From contig CM000152.2 of assembly GCA_000004695.1 (NCBI GenBank), positions 1,312,001 to 1,376,000 on the forward strand: 64,000 bases of DNA, in the 5' to 3' direction. A program made the translations under genes and the position numbers. The DNA is from Dictyostelium discoideum. Lineage: Eukaryota. The first letter of the stretch is position 1, and each line of letters opens with the position of its first letter. The notes under the pieces were generated by a model. The model saw nothing but the letters and a program-made list of their open reading frames with translations, was not told the DNA's origin and did not search any database. Positions 9,299 to 53,486 of this stretch are shown piece by piece.

Positions 9299-10102
9299 TT
9301 AATAATTTGAATTTGATTCAACTTGTTTGAAATATTTATAGGTTTTAACTTTTAATTCAGCGGTAGCATCTTCATCACAAACGATGATTGATTTTTTATG
9401 CATTTGGATTGCAGAAGCAGTCCACATATGGTTGACACCTTCTTCAATGGTTCTATAGAGAGCAATGGCTTTTGAATGACCAGTTACAATTAAGATAATT
9501 TCACGAGCATCCATAATTGTGCCAACACCAACTGTGAGTGCTTGGGTTGGGACTTGGTTAATGTTGTTAAAGAATCTTGAATTTGCAATGATGGTATCAC
9601 GTGTGAGTGTTTTAATACGAGTTCTACTTGACAACGATGAGCCTGGCTCGTTGAATGCTATATGACCATCGACACCCATACCACCCAAAAATAAATCTAT
9701 ACCACCATACGATTGTATCTTTTCTTCATAAAGTTTGCACTCATTTTCGTGGTTATCAGTAGTGCCGTTTAAAATGTTGATATTCTCTTTCTTGATATCT
9801 ATATGGTTAAAGAAATTCTCCCACATGAAATAATGGTAACTGAATTTATGATTAGATTCTAATCCGACATATTCATCCATATTGAATGTAACAACCTCTT
9901 GAAATGATATCTCTTTATTTTTATTCATTTCAATTAATCTCTTGTAAATTGGTAATGGTGATGATCCAGTTGGTAAACCAATTACAAATGGTCTATTATC
10001 TCCACTTTTTCTATTTAAAAAGTAATCATTAATTCTTTTTTTTATTACTTGTGAAATATATTCACCTGCTTCACAACTATCATTTTTAATTATTAATCTC
10101 AT
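9299..10102 (-). CDS. Glucosamine-6-phosphate deaminase (NagB/GNPDA family), ~267 aa
   Basis: MRLIIKND...[18 protein letters not shown]...FNMDEYVGL...[18 protein letters not shown]... is a canonical GNPDA. The true ATG is at 10102; the track ORF 9299..10252 runs on into a poly-T-derived poly-Phe leader. Confidence 0.9.
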
Positions 10103-10271
10103 TTTTTTTGGTTTTAAATTAAAAAAAAAAAAAAAAATAAATAAAAATAAAAAATTTATTTTCAGGATTGGTGTTTTAAAAAAAAAAAATAAAAAAAATA
10201 AAAAAAATAAAAAAAATAAAAAAAAAATAAAAATTATTTTGGAATCCAACACAATCCCATCACAACAATTG

Positions 10272-11126: not shown

Positions 11127-13999
11127 TTATGGATCAATTGGGATGGCAAAAGGAGTTGTTATTGATGAATAAATTTCTATGCCAGAGATTGGGATAGCAA
11201 ATTTTGAATTATCTGAAGCCCATTGAATATTTAAAACTTTATCAGTTGATTGATCATTATTCCAAAAGAATGGACCTAATTTTTGATAGTATTGGTATTG
11301 AGGAGTAGTTCTTGTGAATGGTTCTTGATAGGCACCATCGACTTTAATTGTGTATAATGGAAGTGAAGTAAAAATGGAATTACCAGTAAATGAAGGATTA
11401 TAAGTGTATAAATAGAATTTGTATTGTGAATTTCCTGGTAACGTGATATTAATAGTACTTGGAATACTATTAATAACATCATTACTAAGGTATGTAGTTA
11501 ACATACTGATTGAATCAGTGGATGTTACTGGAGTGGTACCATCGGTTATAGATGATGGAGTTGTTGTTGTAATCTTTGAGAATAAACCAGTGGTAGTACA
11601 TTTACCTAAACTATTAACCCAACCACATTTAGTCCAAGAGTTACCAAAGATTGATAATGCACGACGAGTTGCTTCAACATCTGGTGTTAAATCAATACCA
11701 AGATAAAATGAATTACAAACTGAATCTGCAATATAGGTATTTGCATAGTATGAACCAGCTTCACTATAGGATGGAGATAGAAGTGCGTTATAGGATTTAG
11801 CAGAGACCATAACGGTATATTTTCCATTTGATGATGGAAGAGTAACAACATTTGATGTAAAAGTTTCATTTATAGTATATTGAGATGGAGATAGGATTAA
11901 GTGTGGAACTGTAGTTTGATAAACATCATTAACAATATAACTCATACTTTGACCATTACTATCAAGGTAATCAAAGTTTGGAATAAATGAGAAATTAATT
12001 TGATTTGCTGATAAAATTGATGCACCAAAGTTATACAATGGGAAAAAGTATGAAATTGTATTATCCAAATTGGTTTTAGTACCATTTACATTTGAAAGAT
12101 AAAGTTGATTTGTATATTTCTTTAAGAAATCAGAGGTATTTGAAAAATGTGAAAATTTAGAATCAACAATTGAAATATATTTACATTTCAATGATTGTGC
12201 AAAGAATTTATAATTCGATATTGAAATTGCATTCTTTATTGATACTGAATTATAGGTACCAGTGTGTGTATCAGTCTCGAAAATATATACTTTATCATTG
12301 ATGGATAAAGTATTGGCAATGTATGGTGAATCATAAAAGAGTTCAATATTTGGAGTAGTTGAACCAAGAGTTGTTGATGCTCTTTGACCAATGAACCAAC
12401 CACCTAAAAAGTTAATTTTAATTGGTGGTTGAGATGTATAGGAAACACGGAATTCAGCTTCACCAGCGAGGAAATGATTTTTAAAAACAACACTATTCCA
12501 AAGATTATTTGATTTATAATCTTGTGTATTATCTTGAGTAAGACCAGAATAAGTTCCTAAAAGGATATCAGAGGTTAAGCCAGCGATTGATGATCTTGAT
12601 TGAATTGGAATAACTTGGAATGCACCACCTTTAAATTTACCTTCAAATGCATTACCTTCATAGGTTGAATAGGGTGTAGTTGTAATGATACCACCATTAA
12701 TATAATCAATATCTGGATATGATCTTGATGATGGTGTACTCTTATCAGTATAAACAGAGATAAATGCATTGAAACTAATTGTAAATTGTTCAGTACCATA
12801 TAATAAACTAATACCACTAATACCATAACTTAATACGAAAGCATTACCACTTATGGTACCAAATGAACGTTTAATTCCAATATAAGCTCTTGGTGTTAAA
12901 CTTTGCTGATTGGTATAATCATTTAATGGTATAAACATATTATTTTGAATATTAACAGCAAGTTTGTTATGTAAAATTGTAATTGGATATCTATCTGATG
13001 GATTTGTACCAACATGAGTGATTGTATAGGTTGAATCTAATGTATAATCATCCAATGGTGATGATGTTGTATGACCAATATCAGAGAATACTGAATTTTC
13101 AATATTAACTGAAGAATCAAGTGTGAAAACCATTGAACTACTAAAAACACCACTAACAAATAAATTCTTTAAAAATGGACGCATTAAGATATAACCTGCA
13201 CCACCATAATTTGTACCATCTCTTGAATGATAAATACCAGATGCACCAGAAAGACCAGTGTAATAGTTACTAAGTGTATAATTTGGATTGAAATTTACAG
13301 CAGTTTGTAAGAGTGGACTAACCAATTTATATACTGGTTGATTTGAAGTTGGATAAGAGAATGATTTTAAAAATGTACCACCATATGAAGTGAAAGAGTT
13401 ATTTACACCAGTCCACATTGAACTTGTATCGAAACCACGTAATGTTACACTACCACCCAATGAAATAAATGATGATGTTTTTAATGGATCCCAACTTGGA
13501 TAATCGGTTGGATCAAAACCATTGATTACAATTGAATGATTTGAAGTTGATGCTGGAATTGATTCAACAACACCACCTGGGAAAATAATAACTTTTTGAC
13601 AAACCAACTTTGAATTAAATGTTGGATTTAAAATTAATCTACCTTTAACCAATAATGTTGGAATTGAATTTGATGAATTAACTGTAATTGTAATACCAGC
13701 TGGTACAATTAAAACACTATTTATATCTGTAATCATTGTTGAAATTGGATTATCTATTCTATCTATAGCTGGTGTAAGAAATCCTGTTGTTCTATAATTT
13801 GTGGTTGAACTAAGTGTTGAATTACCAGTAAATGAATATTTCTTTACATTTGTATTTGTCTCTAAATCTGGATAAAAATCACCTTTATAATTTGTATTTG
13901 TACTTCCTGGATAATAATCAACTTTAAAATGTGGTTGACCACTTATAGTAACACGAGCAGATGAAAAATCAAAACTATATAAACTTTGACCATTTGATT
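11127..13999 (-). CDS. Secreted G8-like/parallel beta-helix protein, exon 2 (no TM, no kinase)
   Basis: The 959-aa ORF is S/T/N-rich. Its N-terminal region VLIVPAGITITVN...LLVKGRLIL...VIIFPGGVVES...ISLGGSVTLRG fits the G8 glycine pattern and is followed by beta-helix-like repeats. The track start is a TTG; the frame stays open upstream to the acceptor ctctctcttttgatAG. Confidence 0.7.
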
Positions 14000-14086
14000 C
14001 TATCAAAAGAGAGAGATAGAGAGTTAATAAAATCTTGTTTTTTTTTTATTTTTATATTTATTTTTTCAAATCTAAAGAAAATTTAC

Positions 14087-14147
14087 TTTTAGTTGATATT
14101 ATTAATAATATAAAAATTAAAGAAAAAATAAAAAGTAAAGATTTCAT
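14087..14147 (-). CDS. Exon 1 (signal peptide MKSLLFIFSLIFILLIISTK) of the secreted G8-like protein
   Basis: ATG at 14147 and a hydrophobic leader, then a GTAAAT donor. An 87-nt AT-rich phase-1 intron ends at the AG at 14001/14000. The junction restores the frame of ORF 11127..14006 as ...ISTK|K|SNGQSLY. Confidence 0.6.
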
Positions 14148-14400
14148 CTTTTAAAAAACTTTTTAAATAAAATTTGGATATTCTGATAATCATTTATTCA
14201 ATTTAAATATTCTGGAATTCAAAACTCAAATCAATTTAAACAATTAAAAATAAAAATTAAGCCATTTTTTTATGGTGTGGGGGAGTGGGTTAAAATCTTA
14301 GGGGGTTTAAAAATATCTATGTTTAACTGATCCCCTACAAAAAAAGTCCCTCCATATCATCCCCTCCCATCCAAATCTATATCTTACTCTAAACTTTTTA

Positions 14401-14457
<57 letters not shown>

Positions 14458-14540
14458 CTGAATTAAAAATTAATTAATTTCTTGGTTTTTTTTTTTTTTT
14501 TTAAAATTTGTTTTAAAAAAAATTAATTTTTAAAAAATTA

Positions 14541-14584
<44 letters not shown>

Positions 14585-14613
14585 CATTTTTTTTTTTTTT
14601 TTTTTATCTTATA

Positions 14614-14619
14614 TTATTA

Positions 14620-14658
<39 letters not shown>

Positions 14659-14695
14659 AGTATTATTGTTATTAGTATTATTATTGTTACTATTA

Positions 14696-14744
<49 letters not shown>

Positions 14745-14750
14745 ACTATA
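14614..14750. repeat. Imperfect (ATT)n microsatellite in the divergent intergenic region
   Basis: Seen directly in the sequence. Confidence 0.9.
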
Positions 14751-15334
14751 GTATTATTAATACTATATTATTATTCTTTAATTTAATTCATTTTTTTGAT
14801 TGATTTTTGCTCAATTTTTTTTATTTTATTTTATCACCAAAAATCTTTTTTTTTTTTTTTAAAAATGAGATAAAAAAAAAATAGATAAAAGAAATTAATT
14901 ATACCTTATAGCATCAAGAAGTCACTTAGTGGAATGATCAAAATTAAAAAAAAAAAAAAATTTGGTTTGGAGAAAAAATTGATCCAAAAAAAAAAAAAAA
15001 AAAAAAAAAAAAATTAAAAAAAATAAATCAAAAATGAAAAAATTTATAAATAAAAAAAAAAAAATGAAAAAATTTAAATCAAAATGAAAAAAAAAAACAA
15101 CGTTTTGTTATTTATTTAATTTTTTTAGATTCTTTTAAAAAAAAATTATATTGGTTATAAAAACTAAATTTAATTAAAAAAACCAAATCTAAATTTTTGC
15201 AGCATACATAATTCGCTAATTATGAAAATTTGGGAAGGGGTTTCGTATATGCAAATTTTTAAGGGTATAAAATGCGATGTTGGGAAGGAGTTCCAAAGTG
15301 ATCTTAGTGGTGGGTGCATAAAAATTTTTATTTT

Positions 15335-15379
<45 letters not shown>

Positions 15380-15400
15380 TATTTTTTGTAAAATACACAA

Positions 15401-15435
<35 letters not shown>

Positions 15436-15522
15436 TATTTTTTTTATTTTTTATTTTTTTCTATAAAATAAAATTTTTTTTTTTTTTTTTTCCCTTATTT
15501 TCAGAAAAGTAAAAAAAATCAA

Positions 15523-15566
<44 letters not shown>

Positions 15567-15588
15567 ATCTATAAAAGTTATCAATAGA

Positions 15589-15634
15589 ATGAAAACTTTC
15601 TTATTGATCTTTTTGTTAATATGTGTCTGCAAAG
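15589..15634 (+). CDS. Receptor-like TKL kinase, exon 1 (signal peptide MKTFLLIFLLICVCK)
   Basis: ATG plus a hydrophobic leader, then a GTAAAT donor at 15635; phase 1. Confidence 0.65.
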
Positions 15635-15763
15635 GTAAATATTTTTTTTACTTTTTTTTTTTTCTCAAATTTTTTCGTTTTTTTTTTTTTTTTTTTTACT
15701 AAACATAATTTAAATAATTTCTAAACTTTTTTTTTTTTTTTTCTTTTAAAAAATTAATTATAG

Positions 15764-15994
15764 GTATAACCAATATTACAACACCATCTATTTATTTTGA
15801 TTTAAAAAAAATTAATAGATTCCAAGATTATTTAAATAATGGAATTACACCAAGTATCAATTTGACTTTTCACGATTTTTATTATCCAGATGTTTGTGTT
15901 AATACAATTAAAAATATTGATGGATCAACAAATTTCGTTAAATCATCATTTTTAAATGCACCAACTAATTTTGCAAATCTTTATATTACAAAAG
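15764..15994 (+). CDS. Receptor-like TKL kinase, exon 2
   Basis: Follows the acceptor ttaattatAG at 15762-63. The frame equals ORF 15862..16044 (TTG start). Ends at the donor AAAG|GTACTT; phase 1. Confidence 0.65.
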
Positions 15995-16092
15995 GTACTT
16001 TTATTTTATTTTTTATTTTTTTTTTTAAAAGTATACATGTATAAAATTTTATTAATTAATTTTTTATTTTTTTTTATTTTTTATTTTTAAAG

Positions 16093-19000
16093 GATCAAAA
16101 ATGACAGTAAAACCAAATCAAATATTAGGAGCATTTATTAATATACTATGTATTGAAGGATCACTTGAAGTTCCAGTAGGTGTTTTTCCATTTTTTATTG
16201 GTGCATTAGTAATATTACCAGGTGGAAATTTTAAGAGTGAAAGTTCATTTAGATTTATGAATTTAGTAAATTCAAAGATTGATCCACTTAATTTTTTCCC
16301 TGGAATATTGACATTGGGTGGATCACTTTCAATTTTAGGACCAAAATCAATTAAATATTCAGCAAATCGTTTAGGTGATTTTCAATTTCAATTATTAGAA
16401 TTAATTGATCCAAATTCATTCAATAGTGATTATAAAGCAAATATTTATAGTGAATCATTTGTCACAGGTCAACAATGTGATTTCGTGTCAATTACTAATG
16501 GTTACACTCTAACAGTTGGTGGTTGTCAAGGAGTACCATCAACTGATGTAAATATTTATATTTTCTTTGCAACTGTTGATTATGATTGCACATTCATTGA
16601 TTCTGATTCAGAGGTACCTGCATCAATCTATATCAGTGGTGATACAAATGTACATATTGAGAATTTCTTTTTAAATTCGTTAGGTAAAACTACCAATGCC
16701 AATTACAACGATACCATATTGATTTTCTCACCAACTGATGACACAAATGTAACTGATATTATCATTGGAACCAATCAAAGATATAGAAATTCATTATTTG
16801 TAGAGTTTTCAAATAATGTCACATTGAGGAATAATTTCATTAGAGAGTCAATTGAGTCTAGATCACCATTGATGTTTTTTGCATCGAGTCCAATCTTGGA
16901 GGGAAATTTAGTTGTTAGTAATTCCGGGTCAAGTGTAATCGCTCAATTTGGTACTGAATTCATTCAATCAACTAATAATAGTTATTTTTTAGAACCACCA
17001 ACTCAACCTGTAATTCCAAATGATAACAATATGGATTATGGTACAGAAGGGAATGGCATCTACTCTCTCTCACCAATAGTTTCATTTACAACTGATGTAT
17101 TTGTCGGTCAATTAATTTCAATCAATTTCAATTTTATTGCAAATAGATCATTAGTAACTGGTTTCAATTATGATTGTTTTGCACCATGTTATCCAGGTTC
17201 ACCAATCATATCAAATCTAGTTCAACATTCTGTTGATTTTAATATTATTAAACCAACATTTTCATATTCTCATGGTAACACTACCAGCAGCACCACCACC
17301 AGCAGCACCACCACCAATACCAATTCTCATTTTCTTTTAAATGTTAATGATAATGGTAATGAACCAAGTTCATATTATTCATTCAATCAATTATCAATAG
17401 CAAGTGAAGCAATTAAAGTAAATTTACCAATTGGTACATTGGGTATTGGTAATTTATTTGCAACAAATAATTTTAAAATTGATGGTGCACTTGAAAGATT
17501 AGATATTTTAAATTCAATATTTAATTTACCACCACCAATTTCAAATAATTTCTCACAAAGTGGTATTTTATTATCAACAACAACTTCAATGTTAAATTCA
17601 TATGTTTTCGTTTCAATTGGTTCAGAACCAACAAGAATTGAATCTCAAATTTATGGATCAACAATTACACCTTATTATTATAATAATATTGAAACACTTG
17701 ATCTATTTCAAATTCAATCAATTTTTCCATCTGTACAATATCAAATTATTAAAAATTCAACCATTAATATAACTATTAATATCACCACCACCACCACCAC
17801 CACCACCACACCCACCACCAACAATGTAGTTTGTTCATTTACATCAATTGTGAATCAACAATCATCAGTAACAAATGAAATTTCAATCAATGAAACTTTA
17901 ATTCAAATGGATCCAATCCTTAACAATTGTGTTTTTCCTTTATCAATTGATCAAGAAGGTTCTTTAAAATTACGTGTAACTATAAAAAATCAAAATTCAA
18001 CTTTAGAAAATCAATATTATTATATAATTGATTTCCCTGAAATTACAATTTTTCAAAGTTTTCAATTTTATACTGGTATAAAATTTATTGATGTTCAATC
18101 ATCCTCCTCTTCATCACAACAAACTTCTTCTTTTTCACCTACAACTACAACATTTCTAAATTTATTATCAACAACAGAAAATTCAAATGGGTTTCTAAAT
18201 GGTTGTCAAATTAGTAATCAATGTACATTATCAAATAATGTTAAATATGTTTCATCATTACCAAATGTAACCAATTCACCAGATTTTCAATTATTTCAAA
18301 GTGGTATAACTCCAATAATACCATATGATCCAGTGGTTATAAATTTAGGAATTGAAAAAAATAAAACATTTCAATTTCAATTATTTTTTACCTTTTATCA
18401 ACCAATCGATCAATATTCAAGTCCATTATCAATCTTTATTCAAAGTGAACCATATTTGTTATTGGATCCTTTAATTGATGCACCAAACTTTAAAAATTTC
18501 ACATTTTTCTATGATAATCTTAATCAAGATTCAATTGAAATTTCATTTATCTCAAGAGGTGATATTTATTTAACTTCAATGGCTATTTATTCTTTAGATC
18601 TTGTATCATATGAAAGTAGTGATAGTAGTAGTAGTAGTAGTAATAGTAGTAGTAGTACTGGCAATGGTATTGGTGATATTGTAAATAATGAGGATAATCA
18701 TAAAAAATTAGTAATTGCATTATCAGTTTCAATTCCAGTTGCAGCATTATTAGTAATTTTATGTTTTGGTATTTTCATTTGTTACAATAATAATAAAAAG
18801 AATAAAAATGAAACCAAAGGAAAAGATATTGAAACTAATACTGATAAAAAAGATGATGAAAATGAAAATGAAAATTGTAAATTTCAATTCAAAGATGAAT
18901 TTTTAACAAATCCAAATGAAATTAATATTCAATTAAAAAAATTAATGATTAATAAATCATCAACATTACCACCACAATCAACAATTTCAATTGATACATC

Positions 19001-19579
19001 ACCATCATCTGAAAATACTACTTTCACTGAATCATTAACACCAAAGAAATCTGCAACTGTTAATGGTGAAATTGATTTTAGTAGAAATAGTACAAATGAA
19101 AGTACTGTTTCTAATTCTTCTTCTGAAAATAATAGTGATAATAACAACAATAATAATAATAAATGTAAAAAAGAAAAACTATCATCATTCCCAACAATAC
19201 CAGGTACAAATCTTACAAATATTCCATTAAATTTAGTTGGTAGAAAATCAAGAAATCCAGAAGATAAATATAGAACCAATAATGATATTTTAGTTTGTCT
19301 TCAAGAATCTCATTATTTTAAACCTGATGATCCATCAATACCAATAGAATTTAGTGAATCAGTTTTAGATTTTGGTAGAGGTTCAAAATGTTTAATCGAT
19401 GAAACTTACATTTATACAATCTCTGTTAAAAATAAATCAACTACTGATTATAATATTTTATTAATTTTACCTATTGATAATAATACTGGTACAATTTCAA
19501 CTGATACCCAATATTTTCAAATTAATGCTGGTGAAAGTAAACCAATTAGTTTTTCAATTAGTTTAAATTGTACAACAAA

Positions 19580-19580
<1 letters not shown>
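16093..19580 (+). CDS. Receptor-like TKL kinase, exon 3: G8-like/beta-helix ectodomain, Thr-rich linkers, TM helix and juxtamembrane region
   Basis: Acceptor tttttaaAG at 16091-92. The ectodomain is paralogous to the minus-strand secreted gene (KPNQILGAFINILCIEGSLEVPVG ~ KGRLILNPTFNSKLVCQKVIIFPGG; DPLNFFPGILTLGGSLSILG ~ DPLKTSSFISLGGSVTLRG). The TM is LVIALSVSIPVAALLVILCFGIFICY. The exon ends at ACAACAAAG|GTAAAT. Confidence 0.8.
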
Positions 19581-19616
<36 letters not shown>

Positions 19617-19645
19617 TTATTATTTATTTAAATTTTTACTAACAT

Positions 19646-19677
<32 letters not shown>

Positions 19678-19685
19678 ATTATTAG

Positions 19686-20654
19686 TATTTTGAAAAAATT
19701 GGAGTTTCAATTGAAGAATTAAATTATCATACATTTATTTGTGTACATATGGAATCAGAATTATCAACAAGATTAGATTTTTCAGAATTAGATTTTGATG
19801 AAATTTGTGGTCAAGGTACTTATGGAATGGTTTATAAAGGAAAATGGAGATCACAAGTTGTAGCAATTAAAATGATGAGAGTTGGCACTGTAAATTGTGA
19901 TGAAGTTTATAGAGAAATGGATATTATGGGTAAAATTCGTCATCAAAATGTTATCTCTTTTATTGGTTGTGTTGTATCATTAGAGCATCTTTGTATAGTT
20001 ACAGAGTTTTCACCAATTGGTTCATTGGGTGATTTAATTCATGGTGATAATAATCAAAAGAAATCCAACACCAACACCATCACCAACACCATCACCAACA
20101 CTAACACCAACACCAACACCAGTACTAGTACCAGTACCAAGCTAACTGTAAAACAAAAACTTAGAATTGCAATTGATATTGCTCGTGGTTGTCAATTCCT
20201 TCATCAGTGTGGTATTATTCATCGTGATTTGAAACCCGATAATGTATTAGTATTCGATATCAATCATAATGCTCCAGTTTGTGCAAAGATCTCTGATTTT
20301 GGAACTTCAAAGGAAACTAATGAATTCAGTAACAAGAATACCAATTGTGTTGGAACACCAATCTATATGAGTAATGAAATCTTGGAGAAAAAGACCTACG
20401 ATAATTCTACCGATGTTTACTCATTCGCTGTACTTTTCTATGAAATGATGATTGAAGAAGTACCTTTCTCTGAAATCGATGAAAAATGGGAAATACCAAG
20501 TAAAGTTATAAGTGGTTGGAGACCTACTAAAGGTTTAAATTCTTTAGATAGAGATATTAAAAACTTAATTAATATATGTTGGGCTCCTCATTCATTACCA
20601 TCTTTTGATGAAATCGTTTTCTCTCTTGTAAAAATATTTAAAAGATTTAATTAA
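19686..20654 (+). CDS. Receptor-like TKL kinase, exon 4: protein kinase catalytic domain
   Basis: A 105-nt intron (GTAAAT...(AT)n...TACTAAC...ttattattAG) separates this exon from exon 3. Exon 4 is in the same frame as ORF 19749..20654. Kinase motifs are GQGTYG, VAIK, HRDLKPDN and DFG. Confidence 0.8.
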   Translation, partial: YFEKIGVSIEELNYHTFICVHMESELSTRLDFSELDFDEICGQGTYGMVYKGKWRSQVVAIKMMRVGTVNCDEVYREMDIMGKIRHQNVISFIGCVVSLEHLCIVTEFSPIGSLGDLIHGDNNQKKSNTNTITNTITNTNTNTNTSTSTSTKLTVKQKLRIAIDIARGCQFLHQCGIIHRDLKPDNVLVFDINHNAPVCAKISDFGTSKETNEFSNKNTNCVGTPIYMSNEILEKKTYDNSTDVYSFAVLFYEMMIEEVPFSEIDEKWEIPSKVISGWRPTKGLNSLDRDIKNLINICWAPHSLPSFDEIVFSLVKIFKRFN

Positions 20655-29279: not shown

Positions 29280-29619
29280 TAAAATGTAATCAAGGGAGAT
29301 TCCAAAGCGAATGCTCGTTCAAAAGTTTCAAATCACTCAACAGCCTGCCTCCGTTTTGTGTTTGGTTCTTTTATACCAAATAAACAAGTTTTATGGCAAG
29401 AAGCTCATAATAAACATACATGTGCCTTTAATCAATCTGTAATCTGTTCTATTACACGATTTTCATGCAGTCACAACAACTTTTTTATAATTTTTAAAAA
29501 AAAAAAAATTTTTTTCAAGCCTCCCAAGAGTAAACAAGTAAGTAATGTAAGTAACTTTTTAATTTTTATACACAATATATTATTTGGACAAGTTTATTAG
29601 TGGAACTTTTTTTTTTTAA

Positions 29620-29720
29620 GTGATGATAACCCAAATAGAAATTTTTTTTTGATTCCTTTCGATTCTCTGTTCTAGAGCGTTGGGGGATACTCTGTGATTC
29701 TATATTCATAGTTACTCTGA
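29620..29720 (+). ncRNA. Candidate box C/D snoRNA (box C GUGAUGA at 29620-26, box D CUGA at 29717-20), apparently intronic
   Basis: Canonical C and D boxes lie about 95 nt apart and are flanked by short complementary UUAA/UUAA ends. The candidate sits between a GTAAGT donor (29541) and a strong polypyrimidine acceptor (ttttttctctctcaatttttAG at 29822-23). Confidence 0.35.
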
Positions 29721-30273
29721 TTTAAATAAAAAAAAAACAAATCATTATACCTTTTTTAAAATAATTTTTTTAAAAAAAAAATATATTAACTTTTTTTTTT
29801 TTTTTTTTCTCTCTCAATTTTTAGGTTTCGGTTTTTTTTTTTTTTTTCTTTTCTCTCTCTTTTTTTACAAGCTCCTCTTCTATATTGCTCTTAGCTTAGT
29901 ATGCTTTATTGTCAAATTTTCTTTGACAACTTTTCTGCTAATCACACAGATTGCCGAGATTTTGTCAAAATAATTTTTTAAAAATAAAGCATATTCAACT
30001 AAAAGCAACTTTCTATTTTCAATAAATAAATAAATTAGTTATTTAATAAATGTATAATAAAAAAATAAAGTTAAATATTTTAGAAATTTATCATTTTTTT
30101 TTTTTTTTTCGCTTTCAACTTTTTTATTTTAAATTATAATTAAAACGAGTTATAAAAATTTATATACTTTTTTATTTTATATATATTTTTTTAAATATAT
30201 AAATCTATCTTTATATGTGCGTATTATTTTTTTTATTTATTTATTTATTTTTTTTTTTATTTATAAATTTAAT

Positions 30274-36298: not shown

Positions 36299-37246
36299 CT
36301 ATTCCCACCAATCCTTAGTAATTGGAATATAACCTTGTTTAATTTTATCAGAAACAAATTCTTCCAAAGTTTTATAAGAAACAGTTGTTGTTGGTGATTG
36401 ACCACTTAAAGAAGTTGAGTTTCTTGTGGGAACGGTAGTACTAGCTTCATTGAATTTAAGTTCTTGATTTAAATTGTTTACACTTGAAGAACGAGAAATT
36501 GTAGGAGAAGTTGTACTACTATTAGTTGGCGATATATTGGAACCTCCACTACTACCACTACTATTTAAACTTGATGCTAAAAGTTCATTTAAATTTTGTG
36601 ATGAACCACTTTTTGGTATATTATTACTTGAATTTGAACTTGAACTACTACTACTACTACTACTGCTACTAACCCTTCTTGGTGGTAAATTTTCAACATG
36701 ATAGCCATGAGAAGATGATTTAATGATTGAATGTAATATTTTTCTATGAGGATCGGATAAATAAGAGAATACAAATGAACCTGGTCTACTATTAGAATTT
36801 CTAATGATGAAACCACCAGCAGGTGCACCAGAAAGTAGAGATGCAACACCTTGAGTTTCAAGTGTTTGAAAGAACCATCTCTTTTCAAATACACCGGCCT
36901 CTTTTAACTTCATTTTTGCTTTTTTCTCTAATTCATGAGCGATATCAGTACCAGGTCTAATGGCAGCCCAACCTCTTAAAGCTTCAGCCCAATTAAAGAG
37001 AGCATAATGATGATTTCTTTTAAGTTTTACAGCAAGTTGAAACTTTTCAATTGCAGACTGATATAATTTTTCAATTTCAGCTTTACCATGTGCTTTGATA
37101 TATGTTTTATTTGAAATTAATCTTGCACGCATTGATAATAAAATTCCCCAATGTGTAAGTATTTCATAATCATCTGGTTTTGATTGAATTGCTACTTTAA
37201 ATTTCTCTGCTGCTTGTATAAATAAATTATCTGCAGAATTTGTTAA

Positions 37247-37306
<60 letters not shown>

Positions 37307-37775
37307 ATTATCATCACTTCCATCATTTGATCCGTCAGGATTATTATTATTATTATTAATATTATTTGAAGTATTATTTGAAGTTGAAGTAGTAGTTGAA
37401 GTATTTGTTGGTTGTTGTGGTTGTGGTTGTGGTTGTTGTTGTTGTTGTTGTTGTTTTGATAATGAAATTGCTTGATGAAATAAACTTACACCTTGTTGAT
37501 AAGGAATGGAGTGAAGAAATTTAACTTTTGGTGTAATAGAAATGATATCATCAGGTTGTATGGATTCACTTTGATCACCCAATTTTTTATATAAACCATC
37601 TCTAAATACAATACCCATCATTTGTGAAATTCTATACAATAACAATTCCAAAGAAAATCCATCTAAATCACAACTTTGTAATAATGAAATACACATCATT
37701 CTATTTAAAAATTTACAAATATCCGGTAAATTAATATTATAATTTATATTATTGTTATTATTCGGATTATTATCA

Positions 37776-37830
<55 letters not shown>

Positions 37831-38873
37831 CTATACTATTATTATTATTATTATTATTTATTAATGGTAATGATCTTAAAAAACTTCTTAATCTATTTTT
37901 AATTTTTCTAGCTATAATTTCAGTATTTATAATTGTTGACAAACGTTGGTCAATTGCATGAAAATCAGTTTTTTTTAAACGTTGTAAATAACGAACGTTT
38001 ATACCTTCACGATGCATACTATCGATTAACATTAGATTTTGAGAAAGTTCCATAATATTTTTACATTTTGTTTTCTTTACTTTTTGATTCATTAATAATA
38101 CAAAACTTGGAATGATATGATTGAGTAAACGTTTTTGTGATCTTTCAACCTCTTCATTGTTTTTATCTCTATCGGGACCAGCAAACTTTGTAAAGGCATC
38201 AGAGGATAGGGGCATCTTTGAACTTCGTACCAATTCGGGTCTAAGAAGTGTATAAAGATGTGAACCTGTTTTACCGGGTATTGGCTTCTCTGGTGGGAAA
38301 ACTCTAGCTGTATCGATTACAACGAAATGATTATCCTTTGTGATATGTCCTTCAATATCGCATGGCCCATATAGAAATGTTTTATTATCGCTCTGACCAG
38401 TATAATGACCTTTTAAATTCAATATTTCACCGGCTTTTCTCATTTTGTCTTCCATCTCTTCGCTTTTATTATAAACTGTTTCACCACCATCATTGGATCC
38501 ATACACCAATGTTTTATCACCATCGATATTAAGTTGAGATGTTGCAATTAATCTATAACCCATATAATCGATCAATGTCATCAATGGTAAAAACAAACCA
38601 TCGATTTGACAATTGAAATATCCCATTAACCCTTTTAATTCATGACCTGCTGACTTCATTGCAAATGCATCGCCACCATAAATACCATAACAATCTACTG
38701 CAAACTTAAAAAATATACCACTCTTTAAATATTTTAATCCACCTGCAACTCCACCTGCATCATATGATGGTATTGTCCATCCACTTGATAATCCTTTCTC
38801 TTGAATAATAGTTACACCATGTTTTGTTGCAACATTTACAAATTCTTCTGCAATTGCTTGAATTTTTTGACTT
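36299..38873 (-). CDS. Clu-domain / TPR / C-terminal SH2 protein, exon 2
   Basis: The CLU central domain IFFKFAVDCYGIYGGDAFAMKSAGHELKGLMGYFNCQIDGLFLPLMTLIDYMGYRLIATSQ...TLVYGSNDGGETV...DIEGHITKDNHFVVIDTARVFPPE aligns with human CLUH IFFSLGFDVRDHYKDFGGD...[20 protein letters not shown]...SVIYGSIDFGKTV...[22 protein letters not shown]. TPR-like helices follow (AIEKFQLAVKLKRNHHYALFNWAEALRGWA). The C-terminus holds an SH2 (WFFQTLETQGVASLLSGAPAGGFIIRNSNSRPGSFVFSYL). The frame continues upstream of the track start to an acceptor near 38874-80. Confidence 0.75.
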
Positions 38874-49339: not shown

Positions 49340-49776
49340 TTATTTATTTAATTCTAAAACTAAATTTTCTGCAATTTTTTTAACGATTTCAGATTCATCT
49401 TGTTTAGAGATTTCATTTAAAATTTGATATAGTGAGTTTGTTTGTTCTTTATCTACAAGTAATAATGATGGTGATTGTACAATGGAGGCAGTGATTTTTA
49501 ATAAAGTAATTTTTGAAACGGGAGAACTATCTACTCTAAGACACTCTACCAAAGAATTTACTAATCCCTCATTGATGAGAGATTTTAACAATTGTTGTGA
49601 ACCATTTATAAGGTTAAAAAGTGGTATAATTGATTTTTGAAATGATGGATGTTTAATATGGTTAATATTTAAAATACCAATCAATCTTAATGGTATATTA
49701 TGATTTTCAAATGATGTTGATGATGATGATGTTGGTAATTGTAATGATGATGATGATGTTGATGTTGATGTTGATA

Positions 49777-49809
<33 letters not shown>

Positions 49810-51959
49810 GTGATGATTTTGATGTTGATGTTGATGTTGATGTCGATGTTAAAGGAGATATTGTACCACCACTATTTAATTTTTCAAAAACTAATTTAGA
49901 TTCTAAAGTTGCCCAAGTTGAAATTGATTCTATTGCATCAGCAAACCAATTTCTATCCTCAATTAAATCCAATAGTTTATCGATGGTATTACATTTCCAA
50001 AGTAGGGATCTATTATTACAAGATCTAACCAAATCGAATAGTATCGGTAAGGCCAATTCTTTTAATGGACCTCTTTCTTCGATGATAGTTAGCAATGGTT
50101 CAAGTATTGATGATTTCAATGCTTTCTCTTGTCTACTTCTATCCAATAATAATAAATAATAAAGTGAATGTAATGCTTGATTATGAATCTCTGTAATCTT
50201 ATCGATACCACCATGTTTCTTCAAATAGTTTATCAATGGTGGGATTACACCAGCATCATCTAATCTTGAACGAACATTTGGATCCATTGATAGATTCTTT
50301 ATAACTTTTAATATTTTCAATAGGAATGATCTAATATTATTACCAATGGTTTTCCATGTATAAATTTCATCCAATACATTTACAATATATTTAATAACAT
50401 TGGATTGACTCATCTCTTCCTTTACCAATGAATCACCTGTTGAAAAAAATAATAAAATATCTGCCGCTTTCACACTATATGCTAAAACTTTATCAAATTG
50501 ATCTTTACTTAAATTCTTTACACTTGATGATTTAGATAATACTGGAAATTTTAAATTTGGTGATGATGATGATGGTAATAATTGTTGTTGTTGTTGTTGT
50601 TGTTGTTGCTGTTGTAATAATAATTGTTGTTGTTGTTGAATTTGTTTTTGTTGAAATTGTTGAGATTTACTTGTTGCAGATTTATCGCTTGAATTAAAAA
50701 TTTGATTTAAAAGGTAAGAAATTCTATACATTAATGCAGTTTTTGCAAATAAATGACATAATGCAGTTTTTGGTGAAGCTGTATTCATTTTAAAAATTAA
50801 AGAGATTGCATCCAATGAATTATGAATTAATGTGAAGCCATTGAAATAATCACTATCTAATAGATCTACTAATACTTTACAACCACGACTACCCGTAATG
50901 AACATATTTAAACTATAGGTTGAATAGCTACATAGTTGTAATACGAATTTTGATACTTCCTCTCTAATGAGTTCATCAAATTGTTTGGTTGCCAATTTAG
51001 TTATGATTGAAATACCATTCATTAAACAAATAGTCTCTTGAATATCTTTCTCCTTTATAATGGATTGGTTCAATAGTTTTAATAGATTGATTACCAATTC
51101 AACATTTGAAAAGTCTTCACTAAACGTATCGGAGTTGTTATTATGATGATAGGTTGTCGTTATGACATCGCTTGGCGTATCACTATTACAACAGCAATTG
51201 TCCTCTAAAATCTCTAGAATCGTAATGATGGGTAGTCTAAAATAAACACCACCTTCACCATTACTAATTAATAATTTACGTTCATCTGGATAGGTTTGAA
51301 AAAGGTCTGTTAACTTTTGACAAGTATCAATTAAAACATCATTTGGTTGATTTGGTTTCAATTGTAATATAAATTCAACAATGGTTTTAACAACTTGTTC
51401 TCTATATTTATCTTGAATATTAATTGTACGTTGATTATCTGCTTCTGACCATGATATTGTATCAAACGATTCTTCAAATTCTGTATCCCATTCTTCTGAA
51501 GTTTCTTTAACTTTTAATTTCATTTCTGATGGCGATAATGGTTGTTGTAAATGTTGTTGTTGTTGTTGTTGTTGTTGTTGTAGAAGTAATTGTTGTTGTT
51601 GTTGTTTAAGTTGACCACTACTACTATATCTAATGATTCTATTTGATGGTAGTATTTTCTTTGCAATATTTGAATTTATTGCTGCATTTGTTGTTGCTGT
51701 TGAAGATTCAGATTCATCACCACTTGAACCGAAATTATCAAATTCATCATCCCAATCTTTCTTTTGATTTCTAACTTTAAATCTACTTGTATCGCTAACT
51801 TTTTGATCAAATACTAAATCAGTTTCATCATCTTCGTTATCCTTTTCAGTGAATTTATTAAATTTTAATAATTTTAATTTATGACTATTACTACTATTAA
51901 TACTATTACTATTACTATTATTATTACTATTATTACTACTATTATTATTATTACTATTA

Positions 51960-52021
<62 letters not shown>

Positions 52022-53379
52022 GCTATTGCTATTGCTAATATTATTATTAGCATTAAAACTTTGTTGGCGTTGTAATTGAATTGGTGGTTTATGACTAAGT
52101 ATTGGTTGTAATTTTTGTAAACATATTGTTGAATTTGGTAATACTATATTATCAAATTCATCATCACTTTCTTTCTCTGAGAATTTTCTTAAATGTAAAT
52201 TTATTTTCTCTTTTTCTTGATTCAATTGTTCTTGTGATTTCATCATTGGTGATAATGGTGTAGTTGGAATTGGTGGTGGTGTTGATATAGCTGAAACAAC
52301 TGGTGATGTTACATTTGATCCTGTATTTGTAGAACTTGGTGTAGTAGTAGTAGTAGTATTAGTGGCTGCATTAGTAGTGGTAGTAGTTGTTGTTGTTGTT
52401 GTTGTTGTTGCAGCGGCAGCAATTATATTTGGTTGTATTGATTGTTTTTGACCAGCCGATAATTTACGTGGAGAAGCAATTTGAACATGTTGACCACTAC
52501 CATTATTAATTTTATTTAATGATGATTTATCAATTGAATTTACTGTTTGACTAATTTTATTTGATGGTACAGCTGACCATGATGAATTTAATGTTGGTGA
52601 AGCTTTATTTTGATTAACTGTTGATGTACTTGTTGCTGGTATTGGTAATAATGATGATGATAATGATGGTGATGTTAATTTATTATTATTATTATTAGTG
52701 GTACTACTATTATTTTTAGTAGTAGTTGAAGAAATATTTGGACTATTATTAGTGGCACTACTATTATTATTATTATTATTATTATCATTTGATGAAGAAA
52801 TATTCATATTTGTTAATGGTGGTACTAATTGAGAAGGTGATGGTGGTTGAACTACAGCAGAAGAACGTGGTCTAGTGATGTTACTATTATTATCTTGAAT
52901 GATATCTTGTAATTGAGCATTATAGGAAAGAATTTCTTGACGGGCATTTTTTGGAGCTTGAGTTTCAGGATTCCTAATTTGTACTGATTTCACCCAAGGA
53001 TGATGTAAAAGTTGTTTTGCGGAACTACGTATATTCTCATCCTTTTTGAAGCAATTTAATAGGAAATCTTTTAATGCCGCTGAAATTCCTGGTGGTATTG
53101 GTGGATGATCCTCTTGAACTATCTTATATAATGCAGCAGCTGGTGCTAATCCAAAATAGGGTGGTGTTCCTGTCAATAATTCAATGATTGTACAACCTAA
53201 ACTCCAAACATCACATGCTGTTGATATACCTTGCATTTGAATAACCTCTGGGGCCATCCAATATGGTGTACCTGCAAATGTATCATCTGGATTATCTGAA
53301 CTTAAATCTGAAACTTTTGTTGCTACACCAAAATCTGCTAATTTAATTGAACCATCTGTACTAATTAATAAATTTGCAG
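49340..53379 (-). CDS. sepA: Cdc7(S.pombe)/Cdc15-family STE-group Ser/Thr kinase (septase-like), exon 4: kinase subdomains VII-XI plus ~1250-aa C-terminal region
   Basis: [23 protein letters not shown]...[40 protein letters not shown]...[14 protein letters not shown]...[28 protein letters not shown] is near-colinear with S. pombe Cdc7. The long tail carries polyQ/N/T tracts and helical ARM-like repeats. The sepA symbol is my inference. Confidence 0.8.
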
Positions 53380-53486
53380 CTAAATAATAATAATAATAAT
53401 AATGAATAATATAAAATATAAAAAACAATGTTAACATATTTGAATTATAATCCATTGTCATCTCCTATCTCTCTCTTCTCTCTCAC

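Follow-up and report, generated by a model that had tools for sequence, protein, structure and literature searches.

Two genes that stand head-to-head in a 64,000-nt stretch of Dictyostelium discoideum DNA raise the question of whether a receptor kinase and its divergently transcribed neighbor form a working pair. The whole stretch is called the window hereafter, and all coordinates are window positions unless another locus is named. The plus-strand gene is gdt9, a receptor kinase gene of the GDT family, and the minus-strand gene encodes a DG1041-family protein. The earlier note on this DNA had interpreted the minus gene as a secreted, kinase-less copy of the receptor ectodomain, and the pair as a decoy, co-receptor or ligand-binding arrangement. 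The present study revealed that the DG1041/GDT pair recurs in group-4 Dictyostelium and, as judged from its sequences, has been duplicated and retained as a unit. We tentatively favor the DG1041-family protein as a candidate partner, co-receptor or modulator of the adjacent GDT receptor, probably acting on a carbohydrate-type ligand.

Both window genes are already annotated. The plus-gene product is 100% identical to gdt9 of D. discoideum AX4 (DDB_G0278879, "Probable serine/threonine-protein kinase gdt9", UniProt Q5VJL3), and a near-identical sequence has been deposited as "dusty protein kinase" (AAS55398, at least 90% identical). The minus-gene product is identical to XP_647795.1 of AX4 ("DG1041 family protein") and has 30 relatives with full-length similarity (E <= 1e-116). 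The pair had been regarded as unrecognized in the earlier note; the GDT family is in fact treated in the GDT passages of PMC1420674. The literature that we searched contained nothing on gdt9 beyond its gene model, and nothing on the DG1041 family or under that name. The genes are known, and the fold assignment of the GDT ectodomain and the conserved DG1041/GDT cassette, both absent from the searched literature, are new.

The gene neighborhoods of the DG1041 family were surveyed at nine group-4 Dictyostelium loci, a small sample, and a DG1041-family gene was head-to-head with a GDT kinase at seven of them (the window, L001, L002, L003, L004, L007 and L008). In D. firmibasis L001, the DG1041 orthologue faces the gdt9 orthologue. 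A glucosamine-6-phosphate isomerase gene adjoins the DG1041-family gene both in the window (9299-10252, minus strand) and in L001 (14058-14852); therefore, local synteny around the pair is conserved. Paralogous DG1041 genes have an immediate head-to-head GDT kinase in D. firmibasis (L002), D. cf. discoideum (L003) and D. purpureum (L004). The order at D. discoideum L007 is gdt6, decayed GDT fragments, a DG1041-family gene and gdt4, and L008 is the third D. discoideum cassette locus. The intergenic region is 1441 bp long in the window and 1500 bp in the orthologous D. firmibasis pair, and the paralogous pairs of D. discoideum, D. cf. discoideum, D. firmibasis and D. purpureum are separated by 508-896 bp. 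Neighbor-joining trees were built from these loci for the DG1041-family proteins and for the GDT ectodomains. The two were congruent, with the key splits supported by 96-100 of 100 bootstrap replicates. In both, the gdt9-type pair and the other D. discoideum-clade pairs are sisters, and D. purpureum branches outside them. Because the two family trees match, we consider the pair to have been duplicated and kept as a unit.

Several of these loci have peculiarities of their own. The GDT fragments at L007 (3106-5837), between gdt6 and the DG1041-family gene, are frame-broken pieces of an ectodomain and were called as two genes (459 and 272 aa). We presume that they may be the Gdt3 pseudogene. Such a pseudogene is mentioned in the GDT passages of PMC1420674. 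L008 is located in D. discoideum assembly GCA_054859355.1, and the 90%-identity clusters of its DG1041 protein (P0009) and of the GDT kinase on its tail side (P0040) contain no AX4 sequence; in AX4 the locus may be missing, diverged or differently modelled. The D. cf. discoideum protein P0067 (ACTFIY_011529, 1901 aa) holds two full DG1041-family copies one after the other (residues 35-944 and 950-1899), and is either a real fusion or a pair of tandem genes merged by annotation. Locus-tag distance was rejected as a proxy for adjacency because tags 16-22 apart proved to belong to immediate neighbors.

The splice sites of both window genes were taken directly from the DNA sequence. The GC content is 13-30% across the window, and the introns are short and AT-rich, as is typical of Dictyostelium. 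The assembled minus gene (14147..14087 + 13999..11127) encodes 977 aa and the plus gene (15589..15634, 15764..15994, 16093..19580 and 19686..20654) encodes 1577 aa, both without internal stops. The features of the locus are as follows.

11127..13999, minus strand: exon 2 of the DG1041-family gene, residues 21-977 and the stop codon, ending ...AIPIDP (from the sequence and the assembly).
11130..12293, minus strand: C-terminal beta-sandwich region of the DG1041-family protein, residues ~590-977, possibly malectin-like or carbohydrate-binding-module-like; putative placement from fold matches.
12441..13748, minus strand: divergent G8 domain (residues ~105-215) and CEMIP/TMEM2-type right-handed beta-helix (to residue ~540) of the DG1041-family protein; the boundaries are approximate.
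14087..14147, minus strand: exon 1 of the DG1041-family gene, 61 nt, signal peptide MKSLLFIFSLIFILLIISTK, phase-1 donor GTAAAT (from the sequence and the assembly; the product is XP_647795.1).
14148..15588, no strand: shared intergenic region, 1441 bp, 14% GC.
15589..15634, plus strand: exon 1 of gdt9, 46 nt, signal peptide, phase-1 donor (from the sequence and the assembly).
15764..15994, plus strand: exon 2 of gdt9, residues 16-93, N-terminal ectodomain (from the sequence and the assembly).
16093..19580, plus strand: exon 3 of gdt9, the remaining ectodomain, the transmembrane (TM) helix and the juxtamembrane region (from the sequence and the assembly).
16093..17285, plus strand: divergent G8 and beta-helix module of gdt9, residues ~88-490, which starts a few codons earlier, in exon 2 (from profile searches, hhalign and the model).
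18708..18785, plus strand: TM helix of gdt9, residues 965-990, LVIALSVSIPVAALLVILCFGIFICY.
19686..20654, plus strand: exon 4 of gdt9, with the kinase domain (residues 1291-1566, window 19791-20618) and its N/T-rich insert (from Pfam and motif positions).

The layout described in the earlier note was confirmed in several respects. The genes diverge over approximately 1.4 kb, more precisely the 1441 bp of 14148..15588. Each gene has a short signal-peptide exon (61 nt in the minus gene and 46 nt in the plus gene) followed by a phase-1 intron, and the profile alignment places these introns at aligned residues (K20/K21 in the minus gene and K15/G16 in the plus gene). As the note had stated, gdt9 alone has a TM helix and an active-looking kinase domain (PF07714, E 2.7e-46, residues 1291-1566; PF00069, E 2.6e-45), in which the catalytic motifs are intact (G-loop GQGTYG at 1297, VAIK at 1314, HRDLKPDN at 1434 and DFG at 1459). 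With its signal peptide, single TM helix and C-terminal kinase of the tyrosine kinase-like (TKL) type, gdt9 has the architecture of the GDT family and is a type-I receptor kinase, and its ectodomain is 38-40% identical over more than 90% of its length to gdt4, gdt5 and gdt6-type proteins.

Two further observations concern the cytoplasmic part of gdt9. The kinase domain is interrupted, after the hinge region and before the catalytic loop, by a low-complexity insert rich in N and T, NTNTITNTITNTNTNTNTSTSTST (residues ~1378-1410, window ~20050-20150). Residues ~1170-1260 (window ~19320-19580 and the start of exon 4), in the stretch from the TM helix to the kinase, are beta-sandwich-like; a HYDIN/CFA65/VesB-like Ig domain gave weak matches in two of 23 GDT-family members (best E 0.0017). 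An intracellular Ig-like domain preceding a kinase would be unusual.

The earlier note considered the two ectodomains to be clearly homologous and essentially the same. Homology was detected, but only as a remote relationship of 22-26% identity that does not extend beyond ~400 aa at the N-terminal side, here called the N-terminal module. The pairwise alignment that the note had proposed as a check yielded 26% identity over 208 aa in BLASTP (E 3e-5, a single comparison). hhalign of the DG1041 profile against the GDT profile gave a probability of 94.8% (E 5e-8, score 76.2). Among 60 controls, the maximum score was 28.3 for 30 reversed or column-shuffled profiles and 34.8 for 30 block-shuffled profiles. 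When regions were aligned separately, the N-terminal module (minus ~111-532 vs plus ~83-484) retained 90.8% probability and a score of 56.6 vs a null maximum of 36.7, whereas the C-terminal halves (~400 aa each) were at the null level (24.1 vs 23.0). Homology over the whole ectodomain was rejected: the 812-column hhalign alignment rests on the N-terminal module, and the middle and last domains were also at the null level.

Searches with hidden Markov models (HMMs) of one family against sequences of the other gave no match at proteome scale. With the filters off, weak but collinear matches (24 bits or less, residues ~100-505) appeared across many family members. Of the two sequence blocks that the earlier note had described as common to both proteins, the DPL...LGGS block was aligned by hhalign and is conserved in both families; the LxCxxxxxxPxGV block fell out of register, and the profile alignment instead pairs IFPGG (minus 159-163) with ILPGG (plus 133-137).

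The nature of the N-terminal module was examined with family profiles and structural models. Pfam G8 (PF10162, gathering threshold 22.9 bits) did not match either window protein, searched whole or as isolated regions, even at E <= 10, and a PbH1 search of the same whole proteins and isolated regions also gave no match. Pfam G8 was found below the threshold in six of 27 DG1041-family members (best E 0.003; 18.2 bits for a region of P0021) and in none of 23 GDT members. However, the G8/beta-helix label of the earlier note proved right at the superfamily level, though the Pfam threshold for G8 membership was not reached and the support is indirect, through family profiles. A search of 1.8 billion representative proteins with the DG1041 profile retrieved 98 proteins at E <= 1e-3, and the matches outside the family cover profile positions ~100-430. 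All ten matches that were checked have an above-threshold Pfam G8 domain in register, under positions ~100-215, and six also have the CEMIP beta-helix domain; these ten proteins score 25-77 bits with the DG1041 profile (library E 4e-12 to 2e-9). The GDT-region profile scores the same genuine G8 proteins at 38-83 bits, including P0081 (83 bits in total) and P0090 (48 bits, with GDT positions 9-376 over its Pfam G8 domain). Its alignments span from the end of G8 (DP...GG motif) through the beta-helix (LGxTT...DT...GTNQR motif). The DG1041 profile had no match among PDB sequences at E <= 10.

The AlphaFold2 model of the DG1041-family protein is all-beta (pLDDT 75.6, pTM 0.79), and that of gdt9 has a pLDDT of ~70-90 over residues 20-400 and a C-terminal half of low confidence. 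A CEMIP/TMEM2-type right-handed parallel beta-helix follows the G8 domain. This combination is typical of proteins that bind or cleave polysaccharides, and such an activity is putative here. Carbohydrate-binding beta-sandwiches and the malectin-like ectodomains of plant CrRLK1L kinases were also matched modestly by both models; the TM-scores were low (0.14-0.35), and the gdt9 model is of low confidence in its C-terminal half. We regard this resemblance as a lead only. A literature search for malectin with Dictyostelium returned nothing relevant.

Each family profile scores genuine G8 proteins above the other family. No GDT protein was present among the 98 library matches of the DG1041 profile, and the GDT profile gave DG1041-family proteins 25 bits at most, below generic G8 proteins. 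The possibility that the two families are each other's closest relatives was therefore rejected. Because each profile prefers generic G8 proteins, the profile scores place the DG1041 and GDT families on separate, fast-evolving branches of the G8/beta-helix superfamily rather than in a close paralogue pair. The minus gene is thus not, as had been claimed, a kinase-less copy of the gdt9 ectodomain; true copies of the GDT ectodomain without a kinase are encoded by other genes, namely gdt5 and those of P0045, P0050 and P0051 (~950 aa), at 38-40% identity.

In most DG1041-family proteins, an S/T-rich linker leads to a hydrophobic tail at the very C-terminus. By inspection, this tail probably is a signal for a glycosylphosphatidylinositol (GPI) anchor. 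It occurs in the D. purpureum protein, in the DG1041-family partners of gdt4-type kinases and in each of the four homologues from Heterostelium, Cavenderia, Acytostelium and Synstelium. The gdt9 neighbor and its orthologues, as well as the unpaired P0021-26 group, end in ...IPIDP or a similar sequence without a tail, and the gdt9 neighbor is predicted to be soluble and secreted. The tail is found in paralogues and in deep dictyostelid homologues; the gdt9 neighbor has thus lost it, and the soluble state of the window protein is derived and the anchored state ancestral.

The intergenic region (14148..15588) contains long poly(A)/poly(T) tracts as well as a run of (ATT)n (~14610-14745), with no tRNA and no Rfam match. 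One block within it is conserved in D. firmibasis in both position and sequence.

14258..14320, minus strand: conserved C-rich block AACCCCCTAAGATTTTAACCCACTCCCCCACACCATAAAAAAATGGC, candidate promoter element, ~110-170 bp upstream of the ATG of the DG1041-family gene.

An RNA gene in this conserved island was considered and rejected, since the block has no Rfam match and no RNA-folding signal (z -0.87 and +0.98). For the same reasons, it is probably a promoter element. We take it to be a candidate relative of G-box/GBF sites in sequence. A second, GC-richer island is located ~260-330 bp upstream of the gdt9 ATG (window ~15259-15330); it has no obvious counterpart in D. firmibasis.

These results may be brought together as follows. 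The conservation and co-duplication of the pairing across paralogous loci and species lend the note's idea of a functional partner indirect support. We speculate that the cassettes have been retained because the DG1041-family protein and the GDT receptor work together. Their genes would be co-expressed from the intergenic region between them. The DG1041-family protein, probably GPI-anchored in most members and released in a soluble form in the gdt9 copy, would act extracellularly as a partner or modulator of the neighboring GDT receptor, probably on a shared carbohydrate-type ligand. Gdt1 and Gdt2 restrain the growth-to-development switch in Dictyostelium. The output of the pair may feed into this restraint and into polyphosphate-induced proliferation inhibition. 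A bolder version, which we put forward as speculation and consider rather improbable as a whole, is that the cassettes are matched modules of an extracellular partner and a receptor kinase, a kinase-based counterpart of the tgr gene pairs. Their ectodomain would sense a glycan or the partner itself and set the growth-to-development decision, and the soluble gdt9 neighbor would be a derived, diffusible form of an originally GPI-anchored partner.

Several findings weigh against a functional partnership. The survey covered nine loci, and at two of them (L005 and L006) the DG1041-family genes, which are the most divergent members, have no GDT neighbor. Several GDT genes are tail-to-tail with a DG1041 gene or lack one. 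Congruent trees are expected from segmental duplication alone and are no proof of interaction. A common ligand cannot be assumed, given the null-level C-terminal halves and the fact that generic G8 proteins are closer to each family than the other family is. Furthermore, pairing across all dictyostelids was rejected: the Cavenderia neighbor is an unrelated cytosolic kinase and the Heterostelium neighbor a tRNA synthetase.

The Cavenderia fasciculata gene (L009, 3993-9136) is a look-alike in its own right. It encodes a large kinase and faces the gene of the DG1041 homologue DFA_07611; the kinase has no signal peptide and no GDT or DG1041 ectodomain, and its kinase domain is in the middle of the protein. 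The resemblance is coincidental and could mislead a domain-level synteny scan.

An alternative explanation, which we regard as a serious possibility, is that the linkage is one of history only. Two neighboring G8/beta-helix genes would have undergone an old segmental duplication, and the gene-dense genome would never have separated them. The DG1041 proteins would be glycan-binding or glycan-cleaving proteins of the matrix, slime sheath or cell surface, or of prey digestion, independent of GDT signaling. Their family is present across dictyostelids without a GDT partner, with homologues in Heterostelium, Cavenderia, Acytostelium and Synstelium, whereas GDT ectodomains were found in group-4 Dictyostelium only; a GDT profile restricted to the ectodomain retrieved 25 Dictyostelium proteins, the same as before, and added no new members. 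Moreover, two D. discoideum DG1041 members are unpaired, polysaccharide lyases, hydrolases and epimerases have this fold, and block duplication alone would suffice for the congruent trees. However, the two genes are still direct neighbors in the same orientation in D. purpureum and in at least three paralogous cassettes of the D. discoideum clade, although the other genes of these loci differ. The intergenic regions are also short (0.5-1.5 kb), and regulatory sequence is therefore probably shared.

A ligand-receptor pair of the tgrB1/tgrC1 type appears unlikely. In such a pair, the DG1041 protein, on a neighboring cell or released, would be the ligand of the adjacent GDT kinase and convey, for example, a cell-density or self signal at the growth-to-development switch. 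The genomic logic is that of the tgr genes, which are arranged in head-to-head pairs with low within-pair similarity that were duplicated as units, tgrB1 and tgrC1 sharing a promoter (bioRxiv 10.1101/2025.10.22.684067). Most DG1041-family members look surface-anchored, and the GDT passages of PMC1420674 present GDT receptors as thought to sense starvation-onset signals. Cells lacking Gdt2 or Gdt4 are less responsive to polyphosphate-induced proliferation inhibition, a weakened response to an autocrine density signal (PMC8262924). However, the beta-helix fold points to carbohydrate rather than protein ligands, and the only polymorphism datum is for the DG1041-family protein, which is 98% identical in two D. 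discoideum strains.

A strict decoy, in which a secreted protein with the ligand-binding ectodomain of gdt9 soaks up the gdt9 ligand, fits the soluble, secreted, divergently transcribed neighbor and the common G8 and beta-helix module, but we consider it very improbable because the similarity is low and partial, with C-terminal halves unrelated by sequence, each family nearer to generic G8 proteins, closer kinase-less copies elsewhere (gdt5, P0045, P0050 and P0051) and a soluble state that is derived.

The partner or modulator reading is accordingly the one that we carry forward as a candidate. The assignment of the GDT ectodomain to a divergent G8 domain and a CEMIP/TMEM2-type beta-helix points to carbohydrate-type ligands, and the DG1041-family neighbors of several GDT kinases, including gdt4 and gdt9, are obvious candidate partners. 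If the coupling is true, the cassettes would join the tgr genes as a second set of head-to-head partners in social amoebae, in this case linked to a kinase. Otherwise, the region amounts to two annotated genes whose superfamilies are related.

Other features of the window were recorded. Two snoRNA genes lie side by side as full-length Rfam matches, DdR18 (H/ACA, 181.7 bits) at 29335-29481 and DdR4 (C/D, 132.3 bits) at 29617-29722, both on the plus strand. A single 786-aa open reading frame (ORF) at 36299-38659 (minus strand) has CLU, eIF3_p135 and SH2 domains, and we take it to resemble the SH2 protein CldA. At 49340-53461 (minus strand), a 1373-aa ORF begins with the C-terminal part of a kinase domain and has a sub-threshold ARMC5-like armadillo match (34.6 vs a 79.9-bit cutoff). 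This is the second kinase gene of the window and is unrelated to GDT.

The pair may be compared with several known systems. To our knowledge, no receptor kinase outside the GDT family has a G8 and beta-helix ectodomain. Among the closest systems is the GDT family itself, since the plus gene is gdt9, with the conserved extracellular gdt domain. The GDT passages of Goldberg et al. (2006; PMC1420674) count six receptor kinases in the GDT family, each with a signal peptide, an extracellular domain of high conservation, a single TM helix and a TKL kinase, and report that the Gdt9 gene model was corrected by in-house sequencing. In these passages, the gdt domain is defined by an in-house profile, no known fold is named and DG1041-family neighbors are not mentioned, whereas the present study identifies the domain as a divergent G8 and CEMIP-type beta-helix. 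Relative to the G8/CEMIP-TMEM2 proteins (PF10162 and PF24606; TMEM2 ectodomain, PDB 8C6I), both window proteins lie below the Pfam G8 threshold. The plant CrRLK1L kinases FERONIA and ANXUR, which have malectin-like ectodomains, show no sequence similarity and TM-scores of 0.14-0.35, and their LLG partners are not homologous to the receptor ectodomain; the likeness is an analogy and not a membership. Decoy or kinase-less receptor paralogues, represented here by gdt5, P0045, P0050 and P0051, are likewise kinase-less extracellular proteins related to a receptor encoded nearby, but the DG1041-family protein has no GDT ectodomain proper and has only the remote G8 and beta-helix module in common with it. 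In the tgr pairs, the proteins consist of IPT/TIG Ig-like repeats and neither partner has a kinase, whereas here both have a G8 and beta-helix module, and a receptor kinase is paired with a protein that is soluble or probably GPI-anchored. A ligand-receptor function has been shown for TgrB1/TgrC1, and for the DG1041/GDT pair it is hypothetical. The two systems nevertheless have the same layout: distantly related secreted or membrane proteins encoded divergently across a short shared intergenic region, with low similarity within the pair and duplication as a unit.

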